A DNA stretch of 64,000 nt from an uncultured Leptospiraceae bacterium (GTDB taxonomy: Bacteria; Spirochaetota; UBA4802; UB4802), in NCBI GenBank assembly GCA_964345775.1, contig CAYFSO010000001.1:11488-75487 (forward strand), read 5' to 3'. The stretch's first letter is position 1. Every line of letters begins with the position of its first letter. Of the stretch, positions 10,410-55,488 are shown one piece after another. Below the pieces are notes generated by a model. It saw only the letters and a program-made list of their open reading frames with translations. It was not told where the DNA came from and made no database searches. The position numbers and the translations under genes were made by a program.

Positions 10410-11393
10410 ATGCCGGAAAAACCAGGGAACACATCAAACAGTAAAGGAACGAAGAAAGGGACAAGGGACAACACCAAAATGACTGGCAAACAGCTTACCA
10501 GGGAAGCAGGCCAGATCATAAAGTCCCGTAAAAGCAGAAGGAAGAAAACAGCCGGCGATGAATTCACCGATTCTTCAATTGCATGGTACCTTGAACAGAT
10601 AAATAAAATACCTCTTCTCACCCGGGAAGAGGAGGATCGTCTTGCGCGTGCGGCAAGGGCCGGTGATCAGAAAGCAAAAGATGAACTGATAAAGGCCAAC
10701 CTGCGTTTCGTTGTTTCTATCGCCAAGAAATACCAGACAAGCGGCATTTCCCTGCTTGACCTCATTAACGAGGGGAACATGGGGCTCATCAAGGCTGCAG
10801 AGAAGTTTGACCCCGACCGCGGTTACCATTTTATCTCCTATGCCGTATGGTGGATACGACAGGCCATCATACTGGCCATATCACAGAAAACCTCGCTGAT
10901 ACGGCTGCCCCTGAACAGGACTGCCGACATGCAGAAGATCGACAGGATACACAAGAACCTGGAAAACAAGCTGGGCAGGGAGCCCACACCGGGTGAGATA
11001 TCCGAGGAGATCGACATGGACAACGAGGAGATCAATCACCTGAGAAATATTTCGCAGGATTACGTTTCTCTTGACGCAACCGTGGGCAATTCCGAGGACA
11101 ATTCCATCCTCAACATGGTTGAGGATCAGAGGATGGAGTCTCCTGACAAAAGGATACTGGACGAGTCCCTTAAGGATGCACTCGACCAGGTGCTCGACAC
11201 ACTCACCTCGTCCGAAAGGGAGATACTCAAATTGCGGTTCGGCCTTGACGGTAATAAACCCATGTCACTGCAACAGATCGGCGAAAAATTTAACCTTTCC
11301 AAAGAAAGGATTAGACAGATAGAGAAAAAAGCCATACGAAGATTACGGCATCCGTCAAGAAGCCAGAAACTGAAGAGTTATCTACAGGATTGA
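10410..11393 (+). CDS. Sigma-70 family RNA polymerase sigma factor, similar to RpoD or group 2 sigma factors.
   Basis: Region 2: DLINEGNMGLIKAAEKFDPDRGYHFISYAVWWIRQAI. Region 4 HTH: SLQQIGEKFNLSKERIRQIEKKAIRRLRH. The N-terminus is lysine/arginine-rich and basic, with no acidic region 1.1. Length is 327 aa. Confidence 0.85.
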   Translation: MPEKPGNTSNSKGTKKGTRDNTKMTGKQLTREAGQIIKSRKSRRKKTAGDEFTDSSIAWYLEQINKIPLLTREEEDRLARAARAGDQKAKDELIKANLRFVVSIAKKYQTSGISLLDLINEGNMGLIKAAEKFDPDRGYHFISYAVWWIRQAIILAISQKTSLIRLPLNRTADMQKIDRIHKNLENKLGREPTPGEISEEIDMDNEEINHLRNISQDYVSLDATVGNSEDNSILNMVEDQRMESPDKRILDESLKDALDQVLDTLTSSEREILKLRFGLDGNKPMSLQQIGEKFNLSKERIRQIEKKAIRRLRHPSRSQKLKSYLQD

Positions 11394-11395
11394 TC

Positions 11396-12478
11396 ATGCG
11401 ATACTTTATCACAGGCCTTCTCCTGGGTATAGCCCTGGGTTTTGCCCCGTGGCTTATGCCCGATCACTCGTTCAAGCTATACCCGCAATGGCAGGGAGGC
11501 ATATCGGGGGCTTCATCAATAGAACATTCGCCATATGCCCCTGATTCAAATGTCCTCATTGGCCCCGTCGAAATTGAAAACGGCTATTACATGTTCAAAG
11601 AGAATGGAAAGCCTGCTGCCAGCCCCGGGACCGATGACCATCTCGTTTCCCCGTCCGGTGACGGGAAATATTATGTGCAATACGGGAAACTTTCAACGGA
11701 AATATCCTACTGCAATTACAGGGGAGAGCCTTTCTGGGCCATGTCAACAGGTAAATACCCGCACCTCTCGTACGGGGGAAAACTCATACTTCTGGTTACC
11801 GCTGACAACAGCTCTATCAGCCTTGTAGATTACAATGGCAACAGCACCGGCGCCGGGACCATCAGCGGGAGATTTTGCACCACCATTGGTTTTTCAAGAC
11901 CTGGAAATGCTGCCTCCCTGGGATTCATGGAAGGCTCGTATTATTTTTTGAACAATACCGGTGAGATTGTACACAAGGGGAGCACTCCCGAAAACTCCCT
12001 GGTCAAGACAACCGGTATCAGCGGCAACGCGCGATACGGCGCCGTACATGCGGGATTACCCGGTAAAGGCGGGGATACGCTATTCCTCCATGATATCGCC
12101 GATGAAGACTCATACATGGTGTCCCTTAAGGCAGAAAGCCTGGCAAGGGCCTCCATGACCATCAACAACAATGGTACTGGCGCCTTCCTGGGCATGTCGC
12201 ATGTGTACCTTGTAAACATCAAAAGGGAAACGCATGACGCCATAGAGATACCTGAAAGAAGGGAGGGACACAGTTCAATACAGTATTCTGACAGCCTGTA
12301 CATGATATCGTATACCGAAAAGAACGGCACATCCCGGTTCTATATTTTTCACGAGAACGGGAATGTCATCTTTACAAGGACATATCCGGACGAACCATTC
12401 CTTGATGTCATGGTGCGGGGACAGTCAATTCTTCTAAGAGGTTCTGATACGCTGTACTGCTATAGTTACCAGATCTAA
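11396..12478 (+). CDS. Hypothetical membrane-anchored extracytoplasmic protein.
   Basis: N-terminal TM segment YFITGLLLGIALGFAPWLM. The start abuts the sigma-factor stop (TGA at 11391-11393, ATG at 11396). No recognisable motif. The 3' end overlaps the convergent GT2 gene by about 70 nt. Confidence 0.5.
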   Translation: MRYFITGLLLGIALGFAPWLMPDHSFKLYPQWQGGISGASSIEHSPYAPDSNVLIGPVEIENGYYMFKENGKPAASPGTDDHLVSPSGDGKYYVQYGKLSTEISYCNYRGEPFWAMSTGKYPHLSYGGKLILLVTADNSSISLVDYNGNSTGAGTISGRFCTTIGFSRPGNAASLGFMEGSYYFLNNTGEIVHKGSTPENSLVKTTGISGNARYGAVHAGLPGKGGDTLFLHDIADEDSYMVSLKAESLARASMTINNNGTGAFLGMSHVYLVNIKRETHDAIEIPERREGHSSIQYSDSLYMISYTEKNGTSRFYIFHENGNVIFTRTYPDEPFLDVMVRGQSILLRGSDTLYCYSYQI

Positions 12479-20328: not shown

Positions 20329-21651
20329 ATGTTGTTAACCACATTCAGAGGCGGCATCCATCCTCCCGGACACAAGGAACTGAGCAGGGATAAGGCTTTT
20401 ACCAATCTTTCAGTTCCTCACAGGTGCTATATTCCCCTGCAGCAGCATATTGGAAAGCCAGCAGTTCCCCTTGTTGAAGTAGATGATATAGTCGAAGAGG
20501 GCCAGATGATAGGAAGGGCCGATGGCTTTATAAGTGCCAACGTGCATGCCTCCATTCCCGGAAAAGTAGTAGAAATTGCCGAGTACCCAACCGTATACTC
20601 TGAACATGGGAAATGTGTGGTTATAGAAACCGAGGGCTCGTTCTCATCGTCAGGCCAGTTAAAAGAATCCAGGAACTGGGAAGATATCTCACCCGAAGAG
20701 CTCATGTCCCTGATTCATGATGCAGGTATCGTTGGCATGGGAGGTGCCGCGTTCCCCACGGCGGTAAAGCTTAGCCCGCCCGAACACAGGGAAATTGACA
20801 CATTCGTGATCAACGGTGCCGAATGCGAACCATACCTTAGCGTTGACGACATGCTGATGCAGACCTACCCCGACGAGATCATCGAAGGGATACGCATCGT
20901 TCTGAAGATACTGGAAATAAACCATGCCGTTATCGGCATAGAAAAGAATAAACCCAAAGCCGTAAAGTCCATCTCGCGGGCCCTTGAAAAAGGGAACTTC
21001 AACGAGTCCATTGAATTGAATGCTCTCCCCGCCAAGTACCCGCAGGGAGCAGAAAAACAGCTCATCTATACAATGCTGAAACGAGAAGTCCCTTCCGGTG
21101 AACTCCCTCTCGATGTAGGGGTAGTCGTAAATAACGTGGGAACCATTTTTGCAATACGTGAAGCAGTTATAAACGGGAAACCACTCATTGAGCGGTATCT
21201 TACCATTACAGGAAGCATTGTAAAAAATCCAGGCAACTACAAGGTGAGGATCGGCACCAGTATATCGGATGTTATCCATGAATGCGGGGGACTTACCGAC
21301 AAACCCGCGAAGATAATAATGGGTGGACCAATGTGCGGCATGGCATTGAATCATCTTGAAATATCAGTAGTTAAAGGTACATCAGGGATACTTTTTCTCG
21401 GACAGGATGAAGTGAACATTCACGAGTACAGCCCATGTATACGATGCGGCAGATGTGTTGCCGCATGTCCCATACACCTGATGCCCAACGAGCTTGGTAA
21501 TGCGGTTGAGAAGCAGCGGTACGACATTGCCGAGAGATTACATCCCTTTGACTGTATAATGTGCGGTTCATGTACATACGTGTGCCCGTCAAAACGCCCA
21601 TTGAGCCATTTCATTAAACTGGCCCAGGTAACGTTCAGCGCCAAACGCTGA
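20329..21651 (+). CDS. rnfC: Rnf electron transport complex subunit C.
   Basis: N-terminus MLLTTFRGGIHPPGHKELS. It has an NADH/FMN-binding core and two 4Fe-4S motifs, CIRCGRCVAACP and CIMCGSCTYVCP. Confidence 0.9.
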   Translation: MLLTTFRGGIHPPGHKELSRDKAFTNLSVPHRCYIPLQQHIGKPAVPLVEVDDIVEEGQMIGRADGFISANVHASIPGKVVEIAEYPTVYSEHGKCVVIETEGSFSSSGQLKESRNWEDISPEELMSLIHDAGIVGMGGAAFPTAVKLSPPEHREIDTFVINGAECEPYLSVDDMLMQTYPDEIIEGIRIVLKILEINHAVIGIEKNKPKAVKSISRALEKGNFNESIELNALPAKYPQGAEKQLIYTMLKREVPSGELPLDVGVVVNNVGTIFAIREAVINGKPLIERYLTITGSIVKNPGNYKVRIGTSISDVIHECGGLTDKPAKIIMGGPMCGMALNHLEISVVKGTSGILFLGQDEVNIHEYSPCIRCGRCVAACPIHLMPNELGNAVEKQRYDIAERLHPFDCIMCGSCTYVCPSKRPLSHFIKLAQVTFSAKR

Positions 21652-21689
21652 TATTATCACCACAGAATACACAAGGAACCGGTACTATC

Positions 21690-22769
21690 ATGGCTGACGA
21701 AAAAAGGTTACAGGAAGATCTTGTACTCTCGAATCCTCCACATATTCGATCAAAGGATTCCCTCGGGAAAGTTATGTGGCTGGTGGTCATATCTCTTTTG
21801 CCTGCAACCATTAACTCGGTTTACCTGTTTGGCCTGCAGGTAGTGGTCCTGATCGGCACCGCCATTCTGTCGGCGGTTCTTGCTGAAGCGGTGTTCCAGT
21901 TTCTCATGAAAAAGGAAATTACCGCACTGGATGGATCGGCTGTTATTACCGGTCTTTTACTGGCAATGAACGTTCCTCCACATGCACCGGCATGGATGGT
22001 GGGTATTGGCTCCGCGTTTGCGATTATTATTGCCAAGCAGTTGTTCGGAGGCACCGGCTTCAATATTTTCAACCCGGCCCTTGCAGGCAGGGCCTTCCTT
22101 ATGGCATCATGGCCGGTTGAAATGACTACCATGTGGCACCCCTTCACGTCCGGCAATGTATTGTCATCTACGCTGCCACAGGCACATGGACTCCCGCAAA
22201 AAGCCGTGGACACCATCTCTTCGGCAACCCCGCTGGGAGTATTGAAAGAAGGTCCGGGCATGGTAAAGGAATTCAACGTTATGCCTGAACAGCTGCATGA
22301 GTTTCTTTTTTCCAATACGATGATGAAGTCACTTTTCATGGGGAATATAGGGGGGTGTATTGGCGAGACTTCAGCCATCTTCATTCTTTTAGGAGCACTT
22401 TTTCTACTTTACAGGAAAATTATCACCTGGCATATACCCGTATCATATATAGGGACGGTAGCTGTCATCATGCTGACATACTACCTGCTGAGCGGCTCCG
22501 ACATGCCGTACAGGGCCACCCTCTTTCACCTGTTATCCGGTGGATTGATGCTTGGTGCATTCTACATGGCCACCGATATGGTCACATCTCCTGTCACTGC
22601 CAGGGGAATGCTGATTTTCGGTATCGGCTGTGGTATCATCACGTCTGTTATACGGCTGTGGGGAGGGTACCCTGAAGGCGTATCATATTCCATATTATTG
22701 ATGAATGCCGCCGTTCCGCTGATTGACAGGTTGACAAGGCCAACAGTATTCGGTACAGAAAAAACATGA
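21690..22769 (+). CDS. rnfD: Rnf complex subunit D.
   Basis: Polytopic membrane protein carrying the conserved FNIFNPALAGRAFL and SSATPLG motifs. Confidence 0.9.
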   Translation: MADEKRLQEDLVLSNPPHIRSKDSLGKVMWLVVISLLPATINSVYLFGLQVVVLIGTAILSAVLAEAVFQFLMKKEITALDGSAVITGLLLAMNVPPHAPAWMVGIGSAFAIIIAKQLFGGTGFNIFNPALAGRAFLMASWPVEMTTMWHPFTSGNVLSSTLPQAHGLPQKAVDTISSATPLGVLKEGPGMVKEFNVMPEQLHEFLFSNTMMKSLFMGNIGGCIGETSAIFILLGALFLLYRKIITWHIPVSYIGTVAVIMLTYYLLSGSDMPYRATLFHLLSGGLMLGAFYMATDMVTSPVTARGMLIFGIGCGIITSVIRLWGGYPEGVSYSILLMNAAVPLIDRLTRPTVFGTEKT

Positions 22770-22797
22770 TCCAGGAATCCCAATATCGGAGAATATA

Positions 22798-23511
22798 ATG
22801 ACGACCAGGGAAATAATAAAGGGCACAATCATAATTGCCATCATCGCGTTCATAGCGGCTTTTTCGCTTTCCCATATCAATAATATTACAAGCCCGGCAA
22901 TTAAGGCGCAGCAGAAGGAAAAGGAAGAAAGTGCTCTTTCTGTGGTGCTTCCGGGGTATACAATACAGGAAAAAAGATCAACCTCCATTGATGGCGAAGA
23001 TTTTACGTACTGGACTGCGCAGAAAAAGGGAAACGGCCAGACTCTAAAAGCTTTTGCGTTTATCACAAGTCATCCAGGGTATTCAGGTGATATCAGGATG
23101 ATGGTTGGCATAAACAGTAAAAACCAGATCCTGGGACTTTCCATTCTTTCGCAGACAGAAACCCCGGGGCTGGGCGCACGATGCACCGAAATTGCCACCA
23201 CTGAAACATTTTTCGGGCATATACTCGGCACGTCCGTTGATGAAAATAAAGCACCTGGCACCGATGAACCCGCGCGTCCATGGTTCCAGAAACAATTCAA
23301 AGGCCTTGACGCAGAAGAAAAGATCGAGATCGTAAAGAAGGGCGACTGGCAGCCCTCGATGAGGGAGGAACTGCGAAAAAAGAACGCGGTAACCACCATC
23401 ACCGGGGCCACGGTAACCACCAGGGCAGTACGTGACGGCATCAAGGAAGGGATTGAAAACCTGCACAGGGCGCGCAAAAAACCTGAAAACGGGAGGGTTG
23501 ACGCAAAATGA
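22798..23511 (+). CDS. rnfG: Rnf complex subunit G, FMN-binding.
   Basis: N-terminal TM segment. The FMN-attachment region GATVTTRAV is present. Confidence 0.85.
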   Translation: MTTREIIKGTIIIAIIAFIAAFSLSHINNITSPAIKAQQKEKEESALSVVLPGYTIQEKRSTSIDGEDFTYWTAQKKGNGQTLKAFAFITSHPGYSGDIRMMVGINSKNQILGLSILSQTETPGLGARCTEIATTETFFGHILGTSVDENKAPGTDEPARPWFQKQFKGLDAEEKIEIVKKGDWQPSMREELRKKNAVTTITGATVTTRAVRDGIKEGIENLHRARKKPENGRVDAK

Positions 23512-24101
23512 GTTATCTCAATGATTTTATGAAAGGACTCTGGGAGAAGAACCCTATTCTCGTACTTGGTATAGGTCTCTGCCCCACCCTGGCGGTAACC
23601 ACGTCGGTATCAAACGCACTCTGGATGACCCTTGCAACCTCGTTTGTAATGGTCAGCTCAAATATTCTCGTGTCCATTATCCGGAAAGTCGTTCCGCCCC
23701 ATATACGTATTCCCATATTCATTACCATCATAGCAAGTTTCGTTATCATCGTGGAGCTTACACTCAAAGCATTTCAGCCTGATGTATACAAGGCACTGGG
23801 GATATTCATCCCCCTCATTGTTGTCAACTGTATGATACTTGGCAGAGCCGAGGAATTTGCATCAAAGAATACGCTGGGCAGGTCAATACTTGACGGACTT
23901 GGTATGGGAGCGGGTTTCGGCTTTACCCTGGTTATCCTTGCGTTCTTTCGTGAGACACTTGGGGCAAACAAGCTCTTTGGCCTTACCCTCATCCCCGGCA
24001 TAAAACCTGCCACCATGATGATACTGCCACCCGGGGCTTTTATAACACTTGGCCTCATGCTCTGGGCCATGAACGCCATCAAGTCAAAGACCAGGGGGTA
24101 A
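23508..24101 (+). CDS. rnfE: Rnf complex subunit E.
   Basis: MSYLNDFMKGLWEKNPILVLGIGLCPTLAVT is typical of RnfE/NqrD. Its start overlaps the rnfG stop by 4 nt. Confidence 0.9.
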   Translation: MSYLNDFMKGLWEKNPILVLGIGLCPTLAVTTSVSNALWMTLATSFVMVSSNILVSIIRKVVPPHIRIPIFITIIASFVIIVELTLKAFQPDVYKALGIFIPLIVVNCMILGRAEEFASKNTLGRSILDGLGMGAGFGFTLVILAFFRETLGANKLFGLTLIPGIKPATMMILPPGAFITLGLMLWAMNAIKSKTRG

Positions 24102-24103
24102 CC

Positions 24104-24703
24104 ATGGAGATCAAGGTACTTTTTGCCATACTTATAAGCACCATATTCGTTAACAACTACGTGCTCTCCCAGATGCTGGGATTGTGTCCTTTTCTTGGCG
24201 TTTCCAAGAGACTTGATTCTGCCATAGGCATGGGAATGGCCGTCATATTCGTTATGACCATGGCCTCCTTTTTCACGTATTTTATTTACAAGTTTGTCCT
24301 GGTTCCGTACAACATAACTTACCTCAGGACCATTGCCTTTATCATAGTCATAGCCTCACTTGTTCAGCTGGTGGAAATGGTCATAGAAAAGGTGTCCCCA
24401 TCCCTCTACCAGGCACTTGGTATTTTTCTTCCGCTGATAACTACCAACTGTGCCGTAATGGGTGTGGCGGTTTTGAACATTGATTCTGGATTCATCACGG
24501 CCAATATGGGCCTTTTGAAAACAGTGGTACAGGGACTTGGAGCGGGACTGGGCTTTACGCTGGCACTTCTGCTGCTGGCAGGCATACGTGAACGGCTCGA
24601 ACTGGCCGATATCCCTGAAAACATGAGGGGGCTCCCCATTACGTTCATTATTGCCGGACTGCTGGCCATGGCATTCTTAGGTTTTTCTGGAATGCAGATA
24701 TAA
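24104..24703 (+). CDS. rnfA: Rnf complex subunit A.
   Basis: IFVNNYVLSQMLGLCPFLGVSKRLDSAIGMG is typical of RnfA/NqrE. Confidence 0.9.
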   Translation: MEIKVLFAILISTIFVNNYVLSQMLGLCPFLGVSKRLDSAIGMGMAVIFVMTMASFFTYFIYKFVLVPYNITYLRTIAFIIVIASLVQLVEMVIEKVSPSLYQALGIFLPLITTNCAVMGVAVLNIDSGFITANMGLLKTVVQGLGAGLGFTLALLLLAGIRERLELADIPENMRGLPITFIIAGLLAMAFLGFSGMQI

Positions 24704-24725
24704 AATACTCGTACAGGACATATTA

Positions 24726-25361
24726 ATGGAACACAAGGAACCCGTAGTTACATTGCTGGCCATAACACCGGGGGCGGAAAAACTGATCGAGGAAGCAGGA
24801 AGAACCTGTTACCTGTCACTGGACCGTATTACCGACGAAAGCGAGAAAAACTTTATTCGCAAATGCATAAAGAACGGTCACCATTCCATACTGGAACACG
24901 CTTCAGCCAGTTTCAGGATACAGGGCGCTTCGCGGGCATTTACCCATCAACTGGTTCGCCACAGGGTTGCCAGTTTTTCTCAGCAGTCCCAGCGATATGT
25001 TAACGAATCAGAATTTAATTACGTAATACCTCCCGATATACTTGAGAATGATGAGGCAGCCCGCGTGTACAGGGAATTCATAGAACAATCCCGCAGGGCA
25101 TACAACAGCCTCAGGGAAGCCGGCATCAAGAAAGAAGACGCCCGTTTCGTTCTTCCCAATGCACTTGAAAGCCAGATAGTTTTCAGTGCCAATTTCAGGG
25201 AACTCAGGCACGTTTTTTCCCTCAGGCTGGAGAGGTTTGCACAGTGGGAAATACGCAGGGTGAGTGTTCAAATGCTGAAGTTACTTCAGGAAGAAGTCCC
25301 TTCCGTGTTCGGCGATTACATCATCGACGAAACGAACTGGACGGCAAAGTCTTCGTTGTAA
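24726..25361 (+). CDS. thyX: FAD-dependent thymidylate synthase ThyX.
   Basis: The ThyX signature RHR-x7-S-x-R appears as LVRHRVASFSQQSQRY. It also has SILEH and the N-terminus ITPGAEKLIEEAGRTCY. Confidence 0.85.
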   Translation: MEHKEPVVTLLAITPGAEKLIEEAGRTCYLSLDRITDESEKNFIRKCIKNGHHSILEHASASFRIQGASRAFTHQLVRHRVASFSQQSQRYVNESEFNYVIPPDILENDEAARVYREFIEQSRRAYNSLREAGIKKEDARFVLPNALESQIVFSANFRELRHVFSLRLERFAQWEIRRVSVQMLKLLQEEVPSVFGDYIIDETNWTAKSSL

Positions 25362-25377
25362 GCTATACCGTACCGGC

Positions 25378-27264
25378 TTAAACAACGATGTCCGCATGTA
25401 ACGGGCTGAAAACGTATTGCATCACACCTTCCTCGAATGAACGGGTATATTCCACGCCAGCCTTTTCGAACACCCTTTTCATGCTGTCATTTTGCGGCAG
25501 TACGTTTGCTGTCATCTTTTCTATTCCACGCTCACGCCCAATCTTTAGCAGGTACTTCACGAGAAAGGTCGCTATACCATATCCCTGGTATTCCTCGTCA
25601 ACGATGAATGCCATTTCATATCCCTTTTCCCTTTCATCATAAGCGTACCTCGCTTCGGCGATAATACGTTCTATATCCCCGTGCTGAACGATACCCACTA
25701 TGGCAAGAGTATCATCGTAATCTATATTCACGTACTGCTGCATCTGCTTATGAGGCATTATACGTATCCTGGCAAAATACCTCAGGTACTTTGACTCATC
25801 GGAAAAGATGTAAAACAGGCGGCGCATCATGTCTTCATCAGAAGGCTTGACAGGCCTGAATTTCACTTCCAGTCCATCCCTGAACGTTTTTACTGTTTCG
25901 AGGGAGACCGGGTATTCCATTGCATGTTGCATGAGGTACATCTGGTCCTGGTACACATACCCGGCTTTTTTTGCCTCTTCCAGCAACCGTTCGCGATGAT
26001 TGGGGTGGGCAACATCGATCATGGCAAGGGCCCGTTCCCGTATTGACTTGCCAAACAGGTTGGCAACACCGTACTCGGTAATGACATAACGGGTAACACC
26101 CAGCATGGAACGCATCTGTTCAAAAGATTCAGGCGGACGTATCACAATATTGCTGTTCCCGTTCTGGTCAAGAGACCTCAGGGCCACAATAGCCTTCCCT
26201 CCCCGTGAAAATGCAGCCCCCACGGCAAAATTGAGCTTACTTTCATATCCCGATACCAGGTTATCACCGGAATGGAAGACTACCGACTCACCGGAAAGAT
26301 CGATTTTCTTCACGTTCATCACGCTTGTAAGCCGTGGTATCCTGTATAGCGAAGTGGGGAAAGTAAGGCGGTTGAGAGGCATAAAGTCGAACATGGGATT
26401 TCGGCTTACGTAATCATACAGCTCCCTGGAGCCATAACAGTAGCTGGTAGAAACAGGACTGATATTCCTCATACCCCTTTCCATGGATATCACACCCGAT
26501 TCAACCAGGTCGATAACCCAGTCTGAAATAATATGACTGTACACCTTAAGGTTTTTCCTGGTTTTCAGGTGGGCCGCAACCGAATCGAACATTCGTCCCA
26601 CGTGCAGGGCAACCGTTGAACCATCATCAATAAGATTTGATATATGCCACCCGATCCGATCGATTATCTCGTCATATCGTTTTGGTTTTCTTTCCAGCAA
26701 TGGAACATCACTTTCGATGATATGATCCACCTGGTCAATATGTATAGAAGTCTCCCCGTACGTCACTGGTACATACGGGTTCACCTCGGCGATCACAACC
26801 GAAGCGTTTTTTATGGCAATATTAGCCACGTCAATGGCAATGCCAAGACTCATGAATCCCCGGTGATCCGGAGGAGAAACCTGTACAATGGCAACGTCTA
26901 CCCCTATTGCACCCGAAGAAAAGATAAAGGGGATCTCGACCAGGTGTGCGGGTATAAAGTCTACTTTGCCCTGTTCCACGTCCCTGGTAATACTTTCCCC
27001 CACATTAAAGGTTCTCAACCGGTACTTGTAAGAACTGGGATCATCACCACTCAGGTAATCCCCCATGGTGATAAGTTGAATTATTTCAAGGTCCTGCAGG
27101 CCGGGATGATCCGATTTGAGTATGCCGTTAACTGTTTTAACTGGTGTAGCAGGGCCACTGCTGAGGAATATCCTGTTACCGGGATTAATAATAGCCGGTA
27201 ACGAATCAATAATTATCTTTTTATCATTATAAATGTCACGGATGTCTTTTCGGTTATTTCTCAT
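25378..27264 (-). CDS. Fusion of an acetyl-CoA hydrolase/transferase-family domain to a GNAT N-acetyltransferase.
   Basis: The N-terminal 430 aa carry CoA-transferase family motifs (VAIVQVSPPDHRGFMSLGIAIDVANIAIKNASVVIAEVNPYVP and SGESVVFHSGDNLVSGYESKLNFAVGAA). The C-terminal GNAT fold reads EYQGYGIATFLVKYLLKIGRERG. Confidence 0.75.
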   Translation of the reverse strand: MRNNRKDIRDIYNDKKIIIDSLPAIINPGNRIFLSSGPATPVKTVNGILKSDHPGLQDLEIIQLITMGDYLSGDDPSSYKYRLRTFNVGESITRDVEQGKVDFIPAHLVEIPFIFSSGAIGVDVAIVQVSPPDHRGFMSLGIAIDVANIAIKNASVVIAEVNPYVPVTYGETSIHIDQVDHIIESDVPLLERKPKRYDEIIDRIGWHISNLIDDGSTVALHVGRMFDSVAAHLKTRKNLKVYSHIISDWVIDLVESGVISMERGMRNISPVSTSYCYGSRELYDYVSRNPMFDFMPLNRLTFPTSLYRIPRLTSVMNVKKIDLSGESVVFHSGDNLVSGYESKLNFAVGAAFSRGGKAIVALRSLDQNGNSNIVIRPPESFEQMRSMLGVTRYVITEYGVANLFGKSIRERALAMIDVAHPNHRERLLEEAKKAGYVYQDQMYLMQHAMEYPVSLETVKTFRDGLEVKFRPVKPSDEDMMRRLFYIFSDESKYLRYFARIRIMPHKQMQQYVNIDYDDTLAIVGIVQHGDIERIIAEARYAYDEREKGYEMAFIVDEEYQGYGIATFLVKYLLKIGRERGIEKMTANVLPQNDSMKRVFEKAGVEYTRSFEEGVMQYVFSPLHADIVV

Positions 27265-28203: not shown

Positions 28204-28539
28204 ATGTCAAAAAAGGAATTCATACATCCCCCGTTGAACAGTGTTATTGAATCGATTTCCGGACATTATGAATACGTCAACGAATCTATTTTAGATACCG
28301 GAGAAAAAAAACTATTATACTATACGGGTTATTCTGTTACAGACAGGAGTTGTTGTGGAACCGGTGGATGTATTTTCATCTCGATCCCCGGATACGTTAT
28401 TAACCTGCGACATACTCATAAAACCGACGGAAGCTGCATATCTACTGTAGAGCCCATCGTTGACGATAAAGAGAGAACTCGCATTCGTCATTTGCTGAAA
28501 GGTGAGGTATACCATCACCAGGTTATTTTCATTGAATAA
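28204..28539 (+). CDS. Hypothetical 111-aa protein with a CCGTGGC motif.
   Basis: The ORF is intact but has no clear RBS and no recognisable domain. Confidence 0.35.
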   Translation: MSKKEFIHPPLNSVIESISGHYEYVNESILDTGEKKLLYYTGYSVTDRSCCGTGGCIFISIPGYVINLRHTHKTDGSCISTVEPIVDDKERTRIRHLLKGEVYHHQVIFIE

Positions 28540-28543
28540 CGCC

Positions 28544-28930
28544 TCATGGTTTCAGGTATCGAAAATGATTAACGGCTTCAACTTCGGTATTAAAAAACTT
28601 TATGAATTTCTCCAGGTTGATCACATCAAGAACTACCTTTACACTCTCCTTCACGTTTGATATAACCAGGTCGCCTTCTTCCTTTCTCAGCATTTTTGCC
28701 GTATTTATCAGGATCCCTATCCCCGCACTATCGATATACTCTACTTCACCCATGTTAACCACGATTTTCCTTGCACCGCCACCAACCAGCGTGTGAAAGA
28801 GTACCCAGAAATCATTGGAGGTTTCAATATCCATTTTACCGGGAAAATCCACCTTGAAGATAACGGTACTATAATCAATATCCTTCTTGTTTACCGGTGA
28901 GATGTTGATTATTTCGCAATTAATGTTCAT
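28544..28930 (-). CDS. STAS-domain anti-sigma-factor antagonist (SpoIIAA/RsbV-like).
   Basis: STAS core VVNMGEVEYIDSAGIGILI with the conserved phosphorylatable Ser in DSAG. Confidence 0.8.
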   Translation of the reverse strand: MNINCEIINISPVNKKDIDYSTVIFKVDFPGKMDIETSNDFWVLFHTLVGGGARKIVVNMGEVEYIDSAGIGILINTAKMLRKEEGDLVISNVKESVKVVLDVINLEKFIKFFNTEVEAVNHFRYLKP

Positions 28931-28999: not shown

Positions 29000-29374
29000 C
29001 TATATAAACTTCAAGTAATTAACGGCTTCATTTACCGATGGAAACACCTTTATAAAACGTTGAAGATTGATGGGTTTAAAGATTATCTCAATCCTCTGCG
29101 GCATATCTATGAATACAAGGTCTCCGCTCTTTGCTCTCAATAACTTGGTTATCTCTATTATGGCGCCGATACCCTGGCTGTCAATGAATTCCAGGCCATT
29201 CATATCGATTATAATTTTTTTACCGCCACCGTTTACAATGGTAAACAGGAACTGGTATACATCGTTGGTGCGATCAATATCCATGAGATCGGCGATCTCA
29301 ACCCTGAAAATGATAGTATCATAGTTAACATCTTCTACTTTCAACCTGGTCAATTCAATAATCTCAACTATCAT
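29000..29374 (-). CDS. STAS-domain anti-sigma-factor antagonist; tandem paralog of the gene at 28544..28930.
   Basis: IIDMNGLEFIDSQGIGAII with the conserved Ser in DSQG. A GAGGAAAG RBS is present. Confidence 0.8.
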   Translation of the reverse strand: MIVEIIELTRLKVEDVNYDTIIFRVEIADLMDIDRTNDVYQFLFTIVNGGGKKIIIDMNGLEFIDSQGIGAIIEITKLLRAKSGDLVFIDMPQRIEIIFKPINLQRFIKVFPSVNEAVNYLKFI

Positions 29375-29486: not shown

Positions 29487-32234
29487 TTACACGATATCCA
29501 GCACCATGATAGTTACGTCATCTTCAAAGCTTTCGTTGTGCCCCATGCCTGCCCACCTTCTGATGGATAGAACAACGTCTTCCACAAGCGCCTCGCCATC
29601 ACGGTGAACATCATCGGCAATTTTTTTTATGAACTGTTCATATCCAAAAAGCTTACCTTCACTGTTTCGGGTTTCAATTATGGCGTCTGTATACAGAACT
29701 ATCCTGTCACCGGAATGTATATTCACAGTAGTTTCATCATATGTACCGTCTTCAACCCATCCTATGGGGAGAGACTTGGCCCATTCGGTAACTGTTTTGT
29801 CTTCCTGGAATAACAGCGGTGCCCAGTGTCCCGCGTTGGAAACAGTCATAATGTTCTTACTTGTGTCGATGAACACATAACAGGCCGTAATGTAATTACT
29901 CTGGAGGTAATCATGCATGGTCCTGTTAATGCTTGTCATCAGTTTACCCGGCTGGTCTGCATAATCCATGTAAAATCCGGTCACCATCTTGAACATGGCA
30001 CAAATTATTGCGGCAGAGATCCCATGACCTGAAACATCGGCCATGATAAAACCGGTATGATCTTCATCAATTTTGATAATATCATAGAAATCCCCTCCCA
30101 TCTCCTGCATGGGGATATACCTGTATGCCACCTGTATATGCGCCAGTTCAGGCAATTCCTGGATAACCACCGAGTGATGTATCTGGTGGGCAATAAAGAG
30201 GTCTCTCTTGATCATGCTCAGTTCATTATGTTCTTCCACCGACCTCTTCATTGAAATAAGGCTGCGCACCCTTGCTATCAACTCCTCCCTGTTCACCGGT
30301 TTTGAGAGATAGTCATTTGCCCCTGACTGCAGGCCGGTAATGATGTCCTCTACCCTGCTTTTGGCAGTCAGCATCATAACCGGCAACTCGTGCATGGAAT
30401 ACTTCTCCCTGATCTTCCTGCAAACATCATAGCCTGACATGCGGGGAAGCATTACATCAAGCAGTATCAGGTCGGGCAACTGGCCTTCGTCTATCTTGTC
30501 CAGCAGGCGGTCAGCGCTCATTACATGATCAACGTGGTATCCTTCCATTGTTAGAAAATTGATCAGCACCTGCAGGTTGACCGGGTCGTCATCAACAATA
30601 AGCACATGCTTTGGATCTTCGTCATCACTGACCTGCGCATGTTGAAGTGTCAACTTTACTTCATCGTTAAAAATCCCGGTGTATTTCCAGGGAACTGGTT
30701 CTTCCCCGGCTTCAACAATACGGGTGGGTTCAACTGGTTCCGCTTTTGGCATGGTAAAATAGAACACTGAGCCCTGTCCGGGGCTGGATTCAGCCCATAT
30801 TATACCCCCGTGCAGCTCCACGAGTTTCCTGGTAATGGCAAGGCCAAGCCCCGTCCCACCGAATCTTCTGGCATCAGAACCATCCGCCTGTTCAAATGAT
30901 TCAAATATTCGCTCAATCCTGTTTTCGGGTATCCCTATCCCTGTATCGGCAATTGATACCTCAATTATGTTTTTGCCGGGTATTTCACGTGAGGATACCG
31001 TGATAGATCCCATTTCGGTAAACTTTACCGCGTTACCCACCAGGTTCATCATTATCTGCTGTATACGGTTCTCATCACCTTCAACAAACTCTGTTTCCCC
31101 CGGAATATCCACTTCCACTGACAATTGCCTGGTCTCAATAACCGGTTGCAGAATTGACAGAACGAACTGAGCAACGGAGCATATATTCACCGTTGTTCGT
31201 ACAAGTTCGATATCCCTGTTCTTCAACTTGGAAAAATCAAGGATGTCATCAACCAGGTATGAAAGCCTTTGCCCGCTTCTCACTATCAGGGCAAGGTCAT
31301 GAACCGCTTCTTCGGGCATCCGGCCTCCAACACCACCAAGGAGTGATTCTGCAAGTCCTATCATGCCATTGAGTGGTGTACGTAATTCATGGGATATATT
31401 GGCAAGGAACTCGTCTTTTAAATGGTCAAGTCTTTTCAGATCCCTGTTGTTGTCCTGCAGCTGCGAGATCTCCATGTTTATCATCCTGGTGAGATGATTG
31501 AAGGTATTTGCCAGCCGGCCTATCTCATCATTGCCCGTCACAGGTACCTCGTAATTCATGTTCCCGCTTTCAAATTCTGATACAGCAGATGTCAACCTGT
31601 CTATTGGCCTTGAAAAAAACCTGCTGAAAAAAAGGCCCAATATACTTACAACCAGGATAACCATGCCGGTGGCAACAAGTGCAAACATTCTCATTCTGCG
31701 AACAGGTGCCAGTATTTCTTCTTCTGAATACAACAACCTCGCCAGGCAAAGGGGACTTTTCCCGGGTAGTGAAGCCGTCTGTACAAACTGGTAACACTGG
31801 CCATTACCATTGGGACATTTCACGTTTGAAAACCCCGTATTCCCTTCCAGGTGTTCCACCATCTCTTCATCCAGTTGTGCCATCTTCTCATCTTTAAGAT
31901 CGATACCGGGGAACCGGGCAAGGACAATCCCGTTATAACGGGTCTTGGATGAAAGGAGAACCGCCTCTGCCGATATCAAGCCATCTTTGTCGAGCACCTG
32001 CATCATCTTCATGTATTCACCGGCATCCACCCGGGTTGAGTTGAGGTCTCCTCCATTCAGTAGCAGGGTATTCAGCACGGTTCGCGCCAGCATGCTTCCC
32101 TGCAGTTCTCCCTGGTGCATCAGCATTGATATTGTCTCATCCTTCTGCCTGTCCAGTATAAAGAGGGACACCGGGAGAGCAGCAAGCAGTGTGATTATTA
32201 TAAAGGCGATGATGAACTTGTAGCGTAACCTCAT
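29487..32234 (-). CDS. Multidomain sensor with the domain order periplasmic sensor-TM-HAMP-HisKA-HATPase-REC-PP2C (SpoIIE/RsbU-like phosphatase).
   Basis: Two TM segments flank a periplasmic region of about 160 aa. H-box: LANISHELRTPLNGMIG. HATPase motifs: NLVGNAVKFT, DTGIGIP and GGTGLGLAI. Receiver domain: VLIVDDDPV...LILLDVMLPRMSGYD...LSKP. C-terminal PP2C domain: GGDFYDII...GFIMADVSGHGISAAI. Length is 915 aa. Confidence 0.85.
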   Translation of the reverse strand: MRLRYKFIIAFIIITLLAALPVSLFILDRQKDETISMLMHQGELQGSMLARTVLNTLLLNGGDLNSTRVDAGEYMKMMQVLDKDGLISAEAVLLSSKTRYNGIVLARFPGIDLKDEKMAQLDEEMVEHLEGNTGFSNVKCPNGNGQCYQFVQTASLPGKSPLCLARLLYSEEEILAPVRRMRMFALVATGMVILVVSILGLFFSRFFSRPIDRLTSAVSEFESGNMNYEVPVTGNDEIGRLANTFNHLTRMINMEISQLQDNNRDLKRLDHLKDEFLANISHELRTPLNGMIGLAESLLGGVGGRMPEEAVHDLALIVRSGQRLSYLVDDILDFSKLKNRDIELVRTTVNICSVAQFVLSILQPVIETRQLSVEVDIPGETEFVEGDENRIQQIMMNLVGNAVKFTEMGSITVSSREIPGKNIIEVSIADTGIGIPENRIERIFESFEQADGSDARRFGGTGLGLAITRKLVELHGGIIWAESSPGQGSVFYFTMPKAEPVEPTRIVEAGEEPVPWKYTGIFNDEVKLTLQHAQVSDDEDPKHVLIVDDDPVNLQVLINFLTMEGYHVDHVMSADRLLDKIDEGQLPDLILLDVMLPRMSGYDVCRKIREKYSMHELPVMMLTAKSRVEDIITGLQSGANDYLSKPVNREELIARVRSLISMKRSVEEHNELSMIKRDLFIAHQIHHSVVIQELPELAHIQVAYRYIPMQEMGGDFYDIIKIDEDHTGFIMADVSGHGISAAIICAMFKMVTGFYMDYADQPGKLMTSINRTMHDYLQSNYITACYVFIDTSKNIMTVSNAGHWAPLLFQEDKTVTEWAKSLPIGWVEDGTYDETTVNIHSGDRIVLYTDAIIETRNSEGKLFGYEQFIKKIADDVHRDGEALVEDVVLSIRRWAGMGHNESFEDDVTIMVLDIV

Positions 32235-32241
32235 GAACCAC

Positions 32242-33372
32242 CTATTGGAATTTTTCCATTGTTCTCAGGTGTTTTTTCGCCCTTGAAAGATAGACACGGG
32301 CCACCTGGTTTTCCGGATCTATGAGAAGTATTTTCTGCATAATTGATATACATGCTTCGTAATTCCTTTTGTTAAAGGCCTCGATACCGTTCTTTTCGAG
32401 TGTATCGATCCTGTCTTTGAGCATGTTCCTGGTGTTTTCAAGCTTTTTGCCGGCCTTCTCCATGTAGGCGGACGCGTGGATCAGGTAAGGTATTGCAGTA
32501 TAATACCTGTCCCTGGCAAGGAGTGCGACTGCCTCGTCATAGGCATTCTCTGCTTCCCTTATCTCTTCAAGTTTCTCGACAGCTTCATCCAGGTCGGGAT
32601 CCAGGCTCAATGCCTTTTGAAAATATTCTTTTGCCTTCCCCGCCTTCCTGTTTTTCAACTCCTTTATACCTTTCCGGTAGTTCTCCCTGGCGCGGTCAAG
32701 GCTGGAACGCATTTCCTTCCTGGCTTCTTCACGGTATTCCCCGGGTTCGCCGGCGGCAAGGGTATACGAAACCCCCATGTTGAAGGAATTATTCAGCAGG
32801 GGTTCTCTCGAAAGCCACACCTGGCTGTAGACGGCATCAACTCGAAGGGACAACCGGTGAGTGATCTTCACATATGACCCTGCTGTCAGAACATATCCTG
32901 GTTTGAATGTATTCACCTCCTGCCCCGTAAGAACAGCATTTACCCGAAGGTACCGCAGGTCAAGGCCCGCTCCCGCAAAAAACCTGAAATTTTCATGCAC
33001 GTCATAATATAACAGGGGAGCAAGGGTCATCTCGTACGAGTACAGGAAGGAATCATTACTGCTGGTAAACTCGTGGGATGAGAGAGCAAGCCGCGTATCT
33101 GCCATAACATACCGGTTTAACGGAAAGGTGATGTACATTCCGTATGCAATGGAGGAATTCAACTTACCACTGTAATATCCCGGTATACTGGAATAACCTC
33201 CAAAGAGGCCTATGGTTACACGATCATCGGGGATAACCGGCCCTGCATTATTATTCCCGGCATACGTACATTTTGAAATGAATAAAAACAGAACACAAAT
33301 GCTGATCTGCAGAAACAGAAGCGGGACAACTTGCTGGCGGCATGCTGGTCTTTGAATTGTCAGATTCCCCAT
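32242..33372 (-). CDS. Outer-membrane beta-barrel domain protein with a C-terminal TPR-like helical domain.
   Basis: A signal peptide is followed by an OmpA-like beta-barrel pattern with alternating aromatic residues (...VSYTL). The C-terminal region of about 170 aa is helical with TPR-like repeats (AKEYFQKALSLDPDLDEA...). Confidence 0.55.
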   Translation of the reverse strand: MGNLTIQRPACRQQVVPLLFLQISICVLFLFISKCTYAGNNNAGPVIPDDRVTIGLFGGYSSIPGYYSGKLNSSIAYGMYITFPLNRYVMADTRLALSSHEFTSSNDSFLYSYEMTLAPLLYYDVHENFRFFAGAGLDLRYLRVNAVLTGQEVNTFKPGYVLTAGSYVKITHRLSLRVDAVYSQVWLSREPLLNNSFNMGVSYTLAAGEPGEYREEARKEMRSSLDRARENYRKGIKELKNRKAGKAKEYFQKALSLDPDLDEAVEKLEEIREAENAYDEAVALLARDRYYTAIPYLIHASAYMEKAGKKLENTRNMLKDRIDTLEKNGIEAFNKRNYEACISIMQKILLIDPENQVARVYLSRAKKHLRTMEKFQ

Positions 33373-33447: not shown

Positions 33448-34527
33448 TTACCAGCAGATACAGATAAGATCATGAGAGGATACACATACAGGTGCCCCTG
33501 AAGATATCCATTTGCTAACGATACTATCGCTGTCACCAGTTCGACCGTTATATGAAACAGTTCCATTGCTCCAGGTGTCACATGTATTAGCCGCATCAAG
33601 ACTGCCCTCAGTTGTTGACCCCGACCACCAGCTGGATGCTGCCACGCCTGCGGCATCCAGTGCTTTATTTATAGAACCATCCATCAGGTCATCCCAGTTG
33701 TATGCCACAAGGGTCCCGTCGGGTGATCTCACCGGCCAGTCCATGGGCACGCCATGCATGGCGGGAAAGTTCTTGATTGCATCGGTATCAGATATGCTTA
33801 TGAATGCAACTACATGACTGGTTTCCAATTCAGGGTGCTCTTCTTCTTTTCGCTCAGCACACATGTTATCAAGTTCTTCACGTGCCGAGGAAGCGGTCAT
33901 GGTCGCCATGTTGCCCCGGTACGTTCCCACGGAAAAGATATAGATAACTCCCCTTGTCGTTGCGGAGGTTGTGCTATACGCCGAGATATTATCATCTCCA
34001 TCACGTATCACCACATTAAAGTAATAGGTGGTTCCCTTATCAAGTGTTTCTGCCATCACCTGTGTTGTATTTATATACCAGCCGGTAACGGGGGAACCGT
34101 TATTCATGGCATCGGTTGCCGTTTTTATATTGTTCGATCTTGAACGGTACACCCTGTATTCAAGGTTTTCCACAGGCGTCATATCATCTGAGCCCTTTGC
34201 CCACTGCAGTTTCACACTGTTATCATTCACTGATGACGTGGTGATGATACCATCATTCCCGGAATTCGGAAACTGGTTGAAAGGATCAGGATTACCTGAC
34301 GTATCCTCATCCTGTTGTGCGGCAGTATTCTCTTCGTTTACTACATCTTTAACACCATCTTCAAAACAGGCAGTAAAAACGGCAAGTACAAACATGAAAA
34401 CCAGCACAAGTACAACATTGATAACCGACCGTACGGTATGTGCTGAAAAATGAAAAATCACTGCCTTCTTTCCAGCAGTGATTACCTTTTCTTCCCGGGC
34501 TTTAAGCCCATTCTTTAACAGTTTCAT
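33448..34527 (-). CDS. Hypothetical secreted protein with a fibronectin-III-like segment.
   Basis: N-terminal TM/signal segment VINVVLVLVFMFVLAVFTAC. A stretch LQWAKGSDDMTPVENLEYRVYRS resembles an FN3 strand. The C-terminus is Cys-rich (VCVSSHDLICICW). Confidence 0.45.
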   Translation of the reverse strand: MKLLKNGLKAREEKVITAGKKAVIFHFSAHTVRSVINVVLVLVFMFVLAVFTACFEDGVKDVVNEENTAAQQDEDTSGNPDPFNQFPNSGNDGIITTSSVNDNSVKLQWAKGSDDMTPVENLEYRVYRSRSNNIKTATDAMNNGSPVTGWYINTTQVMAETLDKGTTYYFNVVIRDGDDNISAYSTTSATTRGVIYIFSVGTYRGNMATMTASSAREELDNMCAERKEEEHPELETSHVVAFISISDTDAIKNFPAMHGVPMDWPVRSPDGTLVAYNWDDLMDGSINKALDAAGVAASSWWSGSTTEGSLDAANTCDTWSNGTVSYNGRTGDSDSIVSKWISSGAPVCVSSHDLICICW

Positions 34528-34657: not shown

Positions 34658-35890
34658 TTAGTAATCGGTGTGATAATCGATGCACAGTATGAAAGTATCG
34701 CCCTCAATAGTGGCAAATGACGTGGACATGGTGGTACAGAGTTCTCCCGTTGCAGTCGAAATATACGGTTCCGTTGTATACTTATTCATTCCAGCATTAA
34801 TAAAGTAATAGTAATCCTTGAACGAGAGGTCCTCTCCTGTTTCTGCAGGACGAAACAACCTGCTGGTTGCCGGTGCGCTGAATCCCGGGTTCATAACCGT
34901 TCGGGTTATCTGCACACCTTTTGAATCAAGTATATAGCCACAACTAATCTCTGTAAGCCCTGCCAGCAATTCGGTAAGTGTTTCATCCAGTTCAGAAGCA
35001 TAACAGTTTGAAAGTTCACTCTTTATTTCAGCTGTTATGTGGTTAAGAAAACGAAACGTATCCCTTTTCTTCTGGATCTTTTTCAGCGTATGTTCCCTGA
35101 AATCAAGTGCCACTTCTTCTATAGTTTCATATAAAGATCCCACGGGTATATCAGCAGCCGGGGCAGGCTCAGCAAAGTAATATCCCTGCAGGACATCTAC
35201 CCCCAGTTCAAGAAGATGTGCCGCATCATCGCTGTTTTCAATCCCTTCTGCTACTATCACCGCACCCGTTTTATGCCCAAGGTTCACTATTGAACGGGAA
35301 ACTTCCTGCCTGTAAAAACTCTTGTTCACATCCTTCACAAGTGAGCGGTCAAGCTTCAAGAGATGGGGGCTGATAGAGAACAACCTGTCCCAGTTGAGGT
35401 TCTGTCGACCCATGTCGTCAAGGGCAACAAGGAACCCGTTATCCTTGTAATCATCGACAAAGGACCGGAGCAGGTCGGTATGACTGTTGCATGATTCTAC
35501 TATTTCGATCATAACATTTCCGGGATGGATATTATACTGGTTAACCATATCCAGGAGCATATTCGAACAAAGGAAGGTATCATCAAGAAAGGTAATATCC
35601 ATGTTTATTGACAAAATGTGCTCCGGGTTAAGCCGGTGGAGAGGGGCGTATGCCTGTATGCCCTTTTTGCGGCATAGCCTGTCAAGTTGGAGCACCACTC
35701 CCTGCTCCCTGGCAGACTGAAATAATATATCAGGAGGAATAATAGAGCCTTTTTCAGGATGGATACCCCTTGATAATGCCTCGTAGCCAATCACCTTTTT
35801 TTTACGAAGGGATACCATTGGCTGAAAATGTGTTTCTATCAATTCTTCATCAATTATTCTCTTTATGTCAAAATCAATTGCTATCTGCAT
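34658..35890 (-). CDS. EAL-domain c-di-GMP phosphodiesterase with a C-terminal domain of about 150 aa of unknown function.
   Basis: EAL motifs: YEALSRG, NxD..., VALDDMG and GHKTGAVIVAEGIEN...QGYYFAEP. The canonical catalytic residues are present. Confidence 0.8.
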   Translation of the reverse strand: MQIAIDFDIKRIIDEELIETHFQPMVSLRKKKVIGYEALSRGIHPEKGSIIPPDILFQSAREQGVVLQLDRLCRKKGIQAYAPLHRLNPEHILSINMDITFLDDTFLCSNMLLDMVNQYNIHPGNVMIEIVESCNSHTDLLRSFVDDYKDNGFLVALDDMGRQNLNWDRLFSISPHLLKLDRSLVKDVNKSFYRQEVSRSIVNLGHKTGAVIVAEGIENSDDAAHLLELGVDVLQGYYFAEPAPAADIPVGSLYETIEEVALDFREHTLKKIQKKRDTFRFLNHITAEIKSELSNCYASELDETLTELLAGLTEISCGYILDSKGVQITRTVMNPGFSAPATSRLFRPAETGEDLSFKDYYYFINAGMNKYTTEPYISTATGELCTTMSTSFATIEGDTFILCIDYHTDY

Positions 35891-50697: not shown

Positions 50698-50797
50698 TTT
50701 GAAAATGACAGCTGAAAAGTTACATTTTTTATACATATAAATTATTGTGGACGAAACCCTGCTTTTCTTTTTTTATGGTAAGAAAAAAGGGGGCATC

Positions 50798-55363: not shown

Positions 55364-55488
55364 TTCATGTATAATGTATACACGATATCAAATATATCAA
55401 CCATATTTATATATTAATATTGATAATAATCAGCAAATCTGATACCGTAATCATTGTAATCCATAAAAAACACTACAGGATCGCATTA

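Follow-up and report, generated by a model that had tools for sequence, protein, structure and literature searches.

The closest described systems in which a membrane histidine kinase controls a PP2C-type phosphatase through a receiver domain (REC) are built from separate proteins. In Bacillus cereus, the hybrid kinase RsbK and the REC-PP2C protein RsbY control the STAS-domain antagonist RsbV without a histidine phosphotransfer (Hpt) domain (PMC4574943; PMC10950880). RsbK senses via CHASE3 and GAF domains and is controlled by the methyltransferase RsbM; the gating receiver is that of RsbY, while the receiver of RsbK itself is an additional inhibitory domain, and the genes rsbV, rsbW, and sigB are linked. 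In Mycobacterium smegmatis, the membrane histidine kinase RsfS, a prototypical non-hybrid kinase with a CHASE3 sensor, and the REC-PP2C protein RsfR control the STAS protein RsfB, and both phosphotransfer and dephosphorylation have been shown in vitro (PMC10950880). RsfS and RsfR are again two proteins, and an RsbW homolog is encoded alongside. Here, a gene is described that unites these functions in a single chain. It is located at 29487..32234 on the (-) strand (stop codon included) of a 64,000-nucleotide stretch from an uncultured Leptospiraceae bacterium (assembly GCA_964345775.1, contig CAYFSO010000001.1, positions 11,488 to 75,487), and this whole stretch is referred to as the window. 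The encoded protein is a real, intact membrane sensor joining kinase, receiver, and serine phosphatase, and it is a cis-fused variant of the RsbK/RsbY and RsfS/RsfR systems. In contrast to these systems, everything upstream of the STAS proteins is found in one chain, the sensor is predicted to be sCache-like, and neither RsbM nor RsbW nor a sigma factor is encoded in linkage.

The open reading frame (ORF), as given by the ORF list, is uninterrupted, starts with ATG, and encodes 915 amino acids (aa). A Shine-Dalgarno-like AGGTGG, which shares bases with the stop codon of the gene before it, lies 5 nt 5' of the start. The protein consists of a transmembrane helix, a predicted periplasmic sCache/PDC-like sensor, a second transmembrane helix, HAMP, HisKA, HATPase_c, and REC domains, a helical linker, and a PP2C (SpoIIE) domain. 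The five Pfam domains, each of which scores far over its curated cut-off, are HAMP (aa 202-251, E 3.7e-13), HisKA (aa 273-339, E 2.9e-18), HATPase_c (aa 386-498, E 1.2e-31), Response_reg (aa 544-657, E 8.6e-31), and SpoIIE (PF07228; aa 723-913, E 2.5e-40, 138.9 bits against a cut-off of 25). The same five domains are present in each of 72 orthologous database proteins, which are collinear with the fusion protein from end to end, have lengths of 899-940 aa at 39-100% identity, and originate mostly from metagenome-assembled genomes (MAGs) of Spirochaetota. A protein with 100% identity is encoded on an independent assembly (L001), the closest genome records (74-75% identity) come from uncultured Leptospiraceae, and a scan of a genome collection returned only two close relatives, both uncultured Leptospiraceae MAGs. 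A preliminary description of the window had proposed the order TM-sensor-TM-HAMP-HisKA-HATPase-REC-SpoIIE within a single polypeptide. Pfam and a hydrophobicity scan reproduce this order exactly, all domains withstand the comparison with HMM thresholds that it had suggested, and the hidden frameshift that it had named as a possible objection is excluded by the 72 orthologs of the same length and with the same five domains.

The kinase core has the features of class I, HisKA-type histidine kinases. The dimerization and histidine phosphotransfer (DHp) domain (aa 273-339; 31218..31418, as all segments of this gene on the (-) strand), identified by Pfam and motif, carries the phospho-acceptor His282 of the H box in the motif SHELRTP, and this residue is kept in 71 of the 72 orthologs. 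It is followed by the catalytic and ATP-binding (CA) domain of the GHKL type (HATPase_c; aa 386-498; 30741..31079; Pfam and conservation) with the N box N397/N401, the G1 box D430-G432-G434, F444 of the F box, and the G2 box G460-G462-G464. These ATP-binding boxes are invariant or nearly so, with N397, N401, D430, G432, G434, F444, and G464 kept in all orthologs. Autophosphorylation of the histidine is thus predicted from these residues. As in hybrid kinases, a receiver (aa 544-657; 30264..30605; Pfam and conservation) is located C-terminal to the kinase core. Its residues D548, D549, the phospho-acceptor D593, and K645 are found in 72/72 orthologs, while T623 is a threonine in 70 and a serine in 2 of them. 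The CA domain and the receiver are connected by a flexible tether (aa 499-543; 30606..30740), recognized in the ortholog alignment and in an AlphaFold2 (AF2) model, which ranges from 38 to 51 aa with about 10% identity across the orthologs and is predicted to be disordered, the predicted local distance difference test (pLDDT) being below 50 at residues 502-538. Variability and disorder of the tether are to be expected if taking over the phosphate requires a swing of the receiver onto the DHp helices.

This HisKA-HATPase_c-REC core is homologous to that of TorS, BarA, ArcB, LuxQ, and ShkA. Partial NCBIfam matches to TorS, BarA, ArcB, and LuxQ are all far under the respective cut-offs, and Foldseek matches ShkA and GacS. 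In canonical hybrid kinases, the phosphate is transferred via Hpt to a separate regulator, whereas in the fusion protein an enzymatic output follows directly after the receiver. The search for Hpt (PF01627) was negative for the fusion protein, for the other genes of the window, and for 11 related loci; the underlying Pfam scan took in essentially every gene of the 64-kb window, and the related loci were covered by their precomputed Pfam lists, which leaves room for an unlinked Hpt in the remainder of the genome. Because no Hpt is present, a one-step His-to-Asp transfer is predicted rather than a multi-step phosphorelay. Of the intramolecular phosphorelay that the preliminary description had suggested, the transfer within the same chain onto a receiver with conserved residues remains, but not the multi-step relay.

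The receiver is connected to the phosphatase by a helical linker (aa 658-697; 30144..30263), delimited by the AF2 model, a comparison of linker lengths, and the alignment with RssB. In the model, helix alpha5 of the receiver runs on as a single helix (residues 649-689) into the phosphatase, as is typical of REC-PP2C regulators, and 56 residues separate the receiver from the GGD motif in every one of the 72 orthologs. The PP2C/SpoIIE-type Ser/Thr phosphatase domain (about aa 698-915; 29490..30143; Pfam, conservation, and Foldseek) covers positions 1-190 of the 192 positions of the SpoIIE profile. All four of its aspartate motifs, GGD715, D733-x-x-GHG, T849-D850, and D905-D906, are found in 72/72 orthologs, including the metal-binding residues D715, D733, D850, and D906, and G736-H737-G738 is equally invariant. 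Mn2+/Mg2+-dependent hydrolysis of phospho-Ser/Thr is predicted on this basis. Both residue checks proposed in the preliminary description, one for the receiver aspartate and one for the metal-binding residues of the phosphatase, thus had a positive outcome. A truncated pseudo-phosphatase as in RssB of Escherichia coli was ruled out, because the PP2C domain is complete and all aspartate motifs are kept.

The best match of the REC-linker-PP2C half in both sequence and fold is RssB of Pseudomonas aeruginosa (3EQ2, 3F7A, 3F79). The sequence alignment with 3EQ2/3F7A is continuous (E 1.7e-32), Foldseek aligns about 393 columns (E ~1e-22), the PP2C domain matches the RssB phosphatase domain 3F79 with a target-normalized TM-score (TMt) of 0.78, and the NCBIfam model RR_RssB_Pseudo matches residues 543-859. 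In RssB as in the fusion, the PP2C domain is catalytically complete, and a STAS gene but no RsbW-type kinase gene is adjacent. RssB differs in being a soluble, stand-alone regulator of about 394 aa without a fused kinase, known for acting jointly with RssC as an adaptor in the proteolysis of RpoS, whereas the REC-PP2C module described here forms the C-terminal portion of a membrane kinase. For RsbU and RssB, it has been described that N-terminal domains, receivers among them, control PPM phosphatases via crossing helical linkers (PMC12143880).

At the N-terminus, a loop of 155 aa lies between two strongly hydrophobic segments (residues ~7-27 and 183-205). Transmembrane helix 1 (~aa 7-27; 32154..32216) was found with a Kyte-Doolittle scan and is a helix in the AF2 model, and transmembrane helix 2 (~aa 183-205; 31620..31688) was found with the same scan. 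The periplasmic domain in between (aa 28-182; 31689..32153) had no Pfam match even at E<=5 when searched in isolation. Its AF2 model, on which the assignment of the fold depends, has a pLDDT of 91.1, and the best Foldseek matches are the extracellular domain of WalK (query-normalized TM-score, TMq, 0.61-0.73), CitA, KinD, DctB, and the LapD-like CdgS9. The loop is thus probably a single extracytoplasmic PAS/PDC (sCache-like) fold. Neither CHASE3 nor GAF was matched in the sensor by the Pfam scan, Foldseek pointing to the sCache/PDC-like fold. Nor does a methyltransferase gene, which could encode a partner like RsbM, adjoin the fusion gene. The HAMP domain (aa 202-251; 31482..31631; Pfam) follows with a spacing to His282 of 31 residues in 72/72 orthologs.

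Two genes encoding single-domain STAS proteins are located directly downstream of the fusion gene on the same strand. STAS1 (29000..29374, (-); 124 aa) is of the anti-sigma-antagonist type (Pfam STAS, E 7.5e-15; TIGR00377 match), and STAS2 (28544..28930, (-); 128 aa) matches Pfam STAS with E 6e-18 and TIGR00377 over its cut-off. Both have a phosphorylatable serine in a D-S-x-G motif, as is typical of substrates in partner switches. In STAS1, Ser66 is located in FIDSQGIG, which aligns to the YMDSAGLG motif of TM1442, and in STAS2, Ser68 is located in YIDSAGIG, which aligns to FMDSSGLG of SpoIIAA with the phosphorylated Ser58. These two serines are the presumed substrate sites of the phosphatase. 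The motif is kept in 10/10 aligned STAS1/STAS2 orthologs. STAS1 and STAS2 form separate orthologous groups, on which basis their duplication is considered to be old. A convergent ORF for a cysteine-rich protein of 111 aa without Pfam match (28204-28539, (+)) ends 4 bp from the stop codon of STAS2; it is kept in relatives with 75% identity (L003, L004) and was not seen in more distant loci.

Eleven related loci, which represent eight independent lineages, were compared. STAS genes are found within a few genes of the fusion gene in 7/8 lineages, with varied gene order and otherwise unrelated neighbors; they are located downstream in the group of the window, L002/L095, L094, and L097, and upstream in L009, L011, and L096. 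In one locus (L094:8001-14580; GCA_009885955.1, VFJS01000003.1), two full-length sensor-kinase-REC-PP2C paralogs in convergent orientation flank one STAS pair. These are P0012 and a protein of 919 aa that is 40% identical to the window protein and has the same topology. Thus, several fusion sensors may converge on one STAS pair.

A further conserved neighbor is located upstream of the fusion gene. It encodes a secreted protein of 376 aa (32242..33372, (-); Pfam and homologs) with an N-terminal half resembling an outer-membrane protein (OMP) beta-barrel and a C-terminal TPR/helical half, and its stop codon lies 7 bp before the kinase start. TPR_2 is over its Pfam cut-off, and the barrel assignment is weak, OMP_b-brl reaching 25.5 bits against a cut-off of 28.7. 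A homolog adjoins the fusion gene in 5/8 lineages. The next gene upstream (33448..34527, (-)) encodes an fn3-like protein of 359 aa with a weak Pfam fn3 match, the hydrophobic N-terminal segment of which ends with a lipobox-like FTAC; a homolog of this putative lipoprotein is found near the fusion gene in 4/8 lineages. The OMP/TPR protein may be an accessory sensor and the fn3-like protein an accessory component, and the conservation of these barrel/TPR and lipoprotein neighbors suggests a role in envelope surveillance. Among the structures in the Foldseek lists, 9a5d is WalK with YycH/YycI and provides a precedent for protein partners of the sCache-like fold. LapD with LapG is a further precedent for a protein partner of a sensor fold of this kind.

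From the observed anatomy, residue conservation, linker behavior, structural similarity, and gene linkage, we infer a sequence of phosphotransfer and dephosphorylation steps between an envelope signal and a final output. It appears reasonably probable that the protein is a membrane-bound, presumably dimeric sensor in which a whole two-component system is contained in a single chain, the PP2C domain being its output and the STAS proteins the substrates. The sCache/PDC-like domain would sense a periplasmic or envelope signal, possibly via the upstream OMP/TPR protein and the fn3-like lipoprotein. HAMP would pass this signal on to the kinase core, leading to autophosphorylation of His282. The flexible tether would allow the protein's own receiver to dock, and Asp593 would take over the phosphoryl group in a single step. 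Phosphorylation of the receiver would then be passed on via the alpha5-linker helix of fixed length to the PP2C domain and switch its activity, as in RssB, RsbY, and RsbU. The phosphatase would act on phospho-Ser66 of STAS1 and phospho-Ser68 of STAS2, and the dephosphorylated STAS proteins would associate with a partner not linked to the locus, most probably a kinase/anti-sigma factor of the RsbW type encoded elsewhere in the genome, resulting in a change of gene expression or another output. Gating of the phosphatase by the receiver, as put forward in the preliminary description, is supported in silico by the conserved residues of both domains and by a fixed-length helical linker as in RssB. 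The direct wiring into a partner switch, which the same description had proposed, stands as far as the two downstream STAS genes and the STAS linkage in 7/8 lineages are concerned, but the RsbW-type kinase and a SigB/F-type sigma factor are missing from the locus.

Several observations weigh against this model. Neither the 64-kb window nor the 8-10 kb around the fusion gene in any of the eight lineages encodes an RsbW/SpoIIAB-type kinase (PF13581, HATPase_c_2). Searches of the window and the related loci with RsbW and SpoIIAB seed sequences matched only the ATPase domains of large kinases; the seed sequences may not be free of errors, so that the negative result for RsbW rests mainly on the Pfam scans. 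Likewise, no SigB/F/G-type sigma factor is encoded in the window or within 8-10 kb in the eight lineages. Because both components are absent from the window, the partner switch is locally incomplete. STAS linkage is also not universal: the third paralog of the L094 assembly, P0069 (L010), has no STAS gene nearby, and a STAS gene is likewise not adjacent to the fusions that carry other sensor modules (L012, L013, L028). Regarding the linker, no heptad register stood out in a register test, and because of this it is described only as a helix of fixed length and not as a canonical coiled coil. The AF2 model of the whole chain has a mean pLDDT of 79.9 and a predicted template modeling score (pTM) of 0.40, and because of the latter its inter-domain geometry is not reliable. 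Finally, the characterized split systems have opposite signs, phosphorylation activating RsbY and inhibiting RsfR by lowering its phosphatase activity (PMC10950880), so that the direction of gating in the fusion protein cannot be derived from them.

A different role of the receiver is rather unlikely, yet it is the alternative that fares best. The receiver could inhibit the kinase or serve it as a phosphate sink, or it could pass the phosphate on to an Hpt and a response regulator encoded at unlinked sites, while something else controls the PP2C domain. Most hybrid kinases feed Hpt relays, and the window encodes orphan REC-containing proteins (5819-7756, 53246-55363, 55420-57537). In RsbK, deletion of the receiver leads to constitutive activation of sigma-B, and the receiver has been modeled as inhibitory (PMC4574943). 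In the fusion protein, however, the receiver is covalently joined to the output domain by a linker that resembles that of RssB and does not vary in length, as in a terminal response regulator, the full D-D-D-T-K set of the receiver is kept, and Hpt is absent from the window and the 11 related loci. This absence and the directly fused output domain make it unlikely that the phosphate mainly takes an Hpt-dependent route.

It is also unlikely that the phosphatase has substrates other than the neighboring STAS proteins, for example, targets of Hanks-type kinases or phospho-Ser/Thr residues of the fusion protein itself, and that the STAS genes are linked for another reason. The paralog and the several fusions with other sensors that lack a STAS neighbor would fit this possibility, as would the STAS protein of L011, which has no D-S-x-G motif. 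On the other hand, STAS linkage has been maintained in seven of the eight lineages despite rearranged surroundings, the phospho-serine motif is present in all ten aligned STAS1/STAS2 orthologs, and SpoIIE/RsbU-type PP2C enzymes characteristically act on STAS proteins. These observations argue for the STAS proteins as the substrates.

The similarity to RssB leads to a third, distinctly unlikely alternative, according to which the REC-PP2C module and the STAS proteins form an adaptor pair for sigma-factor stability like RssB-RssC of Pseudomonas and Azotobacter and not an RsbV-RsbW-type partner switch. Among proteins with solved structures, RssB of P. aeruginosa is the closest relative; the PP2C domain of pseudomonad RssB is active and full-length, its gene shares an operon with rssC, a STAS gene, with no RsbW linked (PMC12143880), and RssB requires RssC for the delivery of RpoS to ClpXP (PMC12143880; PMC12923157). 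The window also encodes a sigma factor of 327 aa (10410-11393, (+)) that is group-2 RpoD/RpoS-like and under every NCBIfam equivalog cut-off. This sole sigma gene of the window is 19 kb away from the fusion gene with unrelated genes in between, and no such linkage was seen in other lineages. In addition, the fusion protein is membrane-anchored and kinase-fused, unlike the soluble RssB, and two conserved STAS paralogs are encoded here instead of one. The sigma gene overlaps by 4 bp the start of an ORF for 362 aa without family match, the two together spanning 10410-12478 (+).

It would be conceivable, but is very improbable, that the switch is self-contained and does not need an RsbW-type kinase at all. 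In that case, the GHKL ATPase domain of the fusion protein, which is a relative of RsbW and SpoIIAB, would phosphorylate the STAS serines and the PP2C domain would remove the phosphate, so that one sensor would set STAS phosphorylation in both directions. The one point in favor is that no RsbW-type gene is linked in the eight lineages while the STAS genes stay linked. That the ORF is an assembly or frameshift artifact or a decaying pseudogene joining two genes can be dismissed as virtually impossible, given the identical protein on an independent assembly, the 72 collinear orthologs of the same length, the same fusion in 140 further 50%-identity clusters, and the complete set of catalytic residues; the ortholog comparison rules out a split gene, and nothing was found in favor of one.

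The model of a single-chain switch acting on STAS proteins also differs from other systems in which a two-component input acts via a receiver on a PP2C domain and a STAS protein. These are HptB-HsbR-HsbA of P. aeruginosa, SypE-SypA of Vibrio fischeri, and CrsR-CrsA of Shewanella (PMC8256260; PMC6482189). Following the cited reviews and general background, HsbR, SypE, and CrsR also contain a Ser kinase domain of the RsbW type within the same polypeptide, and the phosphate reaches them via Hpt from separate kinases. In contrast, the fusion protein contains a HisKA-type histidine kinase and no RsbW-type domain.

The fused architecture is abundant. A search with the REC-linker-PP2C half against 1.84 billion representatives of 50%-identity clusters resulted in 4,772 proteins at E<=1e-30, and among the best 150 of these, all save a handful matched the query from end to end. 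In 140 of these 150 clusters, a HisKA/HATPase core is located upstream of the REC-PP2C module, and 126 of the 150 proteins are longer than 800 aa. Most of the 10 without a kinase core have the length of stand-alone response regulators. The sensor domain of the window protein is present in only 32 of the best 150, and the kinase-REC-PP2C core is also found behind Reg_prop/Y_Y_Y beta-propellers in Chloroflexota and behind a larger periplasmic domain in other Spirochaetota. Database labels such as 'SpoIIE family protein phosphatase' and 'histidine kinase/serine phosphatase RsbU' indicate that the architecture has already been catalogued by automatic annotation. Accordingly, the novelty of the fusion implied by the preliminary description was overstated, as 140 of the 150 nearest clusters are fused to a kinase. 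The protein belongs to a large database family that is annotated yet uncharacterized; a literature search for the kinase-fused form, the coverage of which excluded most subscription journals, returned only split systems.

An alignment scan of metagenomes picked up generic receiver motifs: of the 80 loci, 77 are ordinary hybrid kinases, and the match extended into the C-terminal region only in L014, L016, and L028. L014 and L016 were set aside as relatives of the fusion, as a PP2C domain was not confirmed by phmmer. L016:193-2280 encodes a distant hybrid kinase that aligns to the query up to residue 910 and has an RsbW-like seed match in its C-terminal part. It may be a kinase-REC-RsbW-type fusion, judging from a weak match (E 2.8e-5) to a seed sequence that may contain errors.

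If the proposed model is correct, the fusion would be the most compact known coupling of an extracytoplasmic signal to a partner switch, with the substrates encoded next door. It would also provide a convenient single-protein system for studying how a receiver acts via a helical linker on a PPM phosphatase, which has so far been worked out on RsbU and RssB, and an entry point into partner switching in spirochetes. It would not represent a new signaling principle, as every step has a characterized precedent in split systems. The fusion is therefore a neat model system rather than a surprise, and its architecture is abundant but unstudied in the databases.

Other genes of the window are of separate interest. 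Three genes upstream of the kinase gene and on the same strand, a protein of 410 aa is encoded (34658-35890, (-)) in which an EAL domain (residues 13-242) is followed by about 170 residues without Pfam match; it is syntenic only in the close relatives L003-L005. The window is rich in orphan two-component proteins. The REC-containing proteins mentioned above have the architectures REC-PAS-HisKA-HATPase-REC (5819-7756, (+)), REC-PAS-PAS-HisKA_2-HATPase (53246-55363, (-)), and REC-PAS-GGDEF-EAL (55420-57537, (+)), and a HAMP chemoreceptor is encoded at 50747-53269 (+). A cluster for an Rnf-type ion-translocating complex (RnfC/D/G and two Rnf-Nqr membrane subunits), followed by Thy1 (ThyX), is located at 20329-25361 (+) and is syntenic with L003. 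Next to it, at 25378-27264 (-), a protein of 628 aa is encoded, the syntenic L003 counterpart of which (75% identity) is an acetyl-CoA hydrolase/transferase with a C-terminal GNAT domain, which is an unusual fusion.

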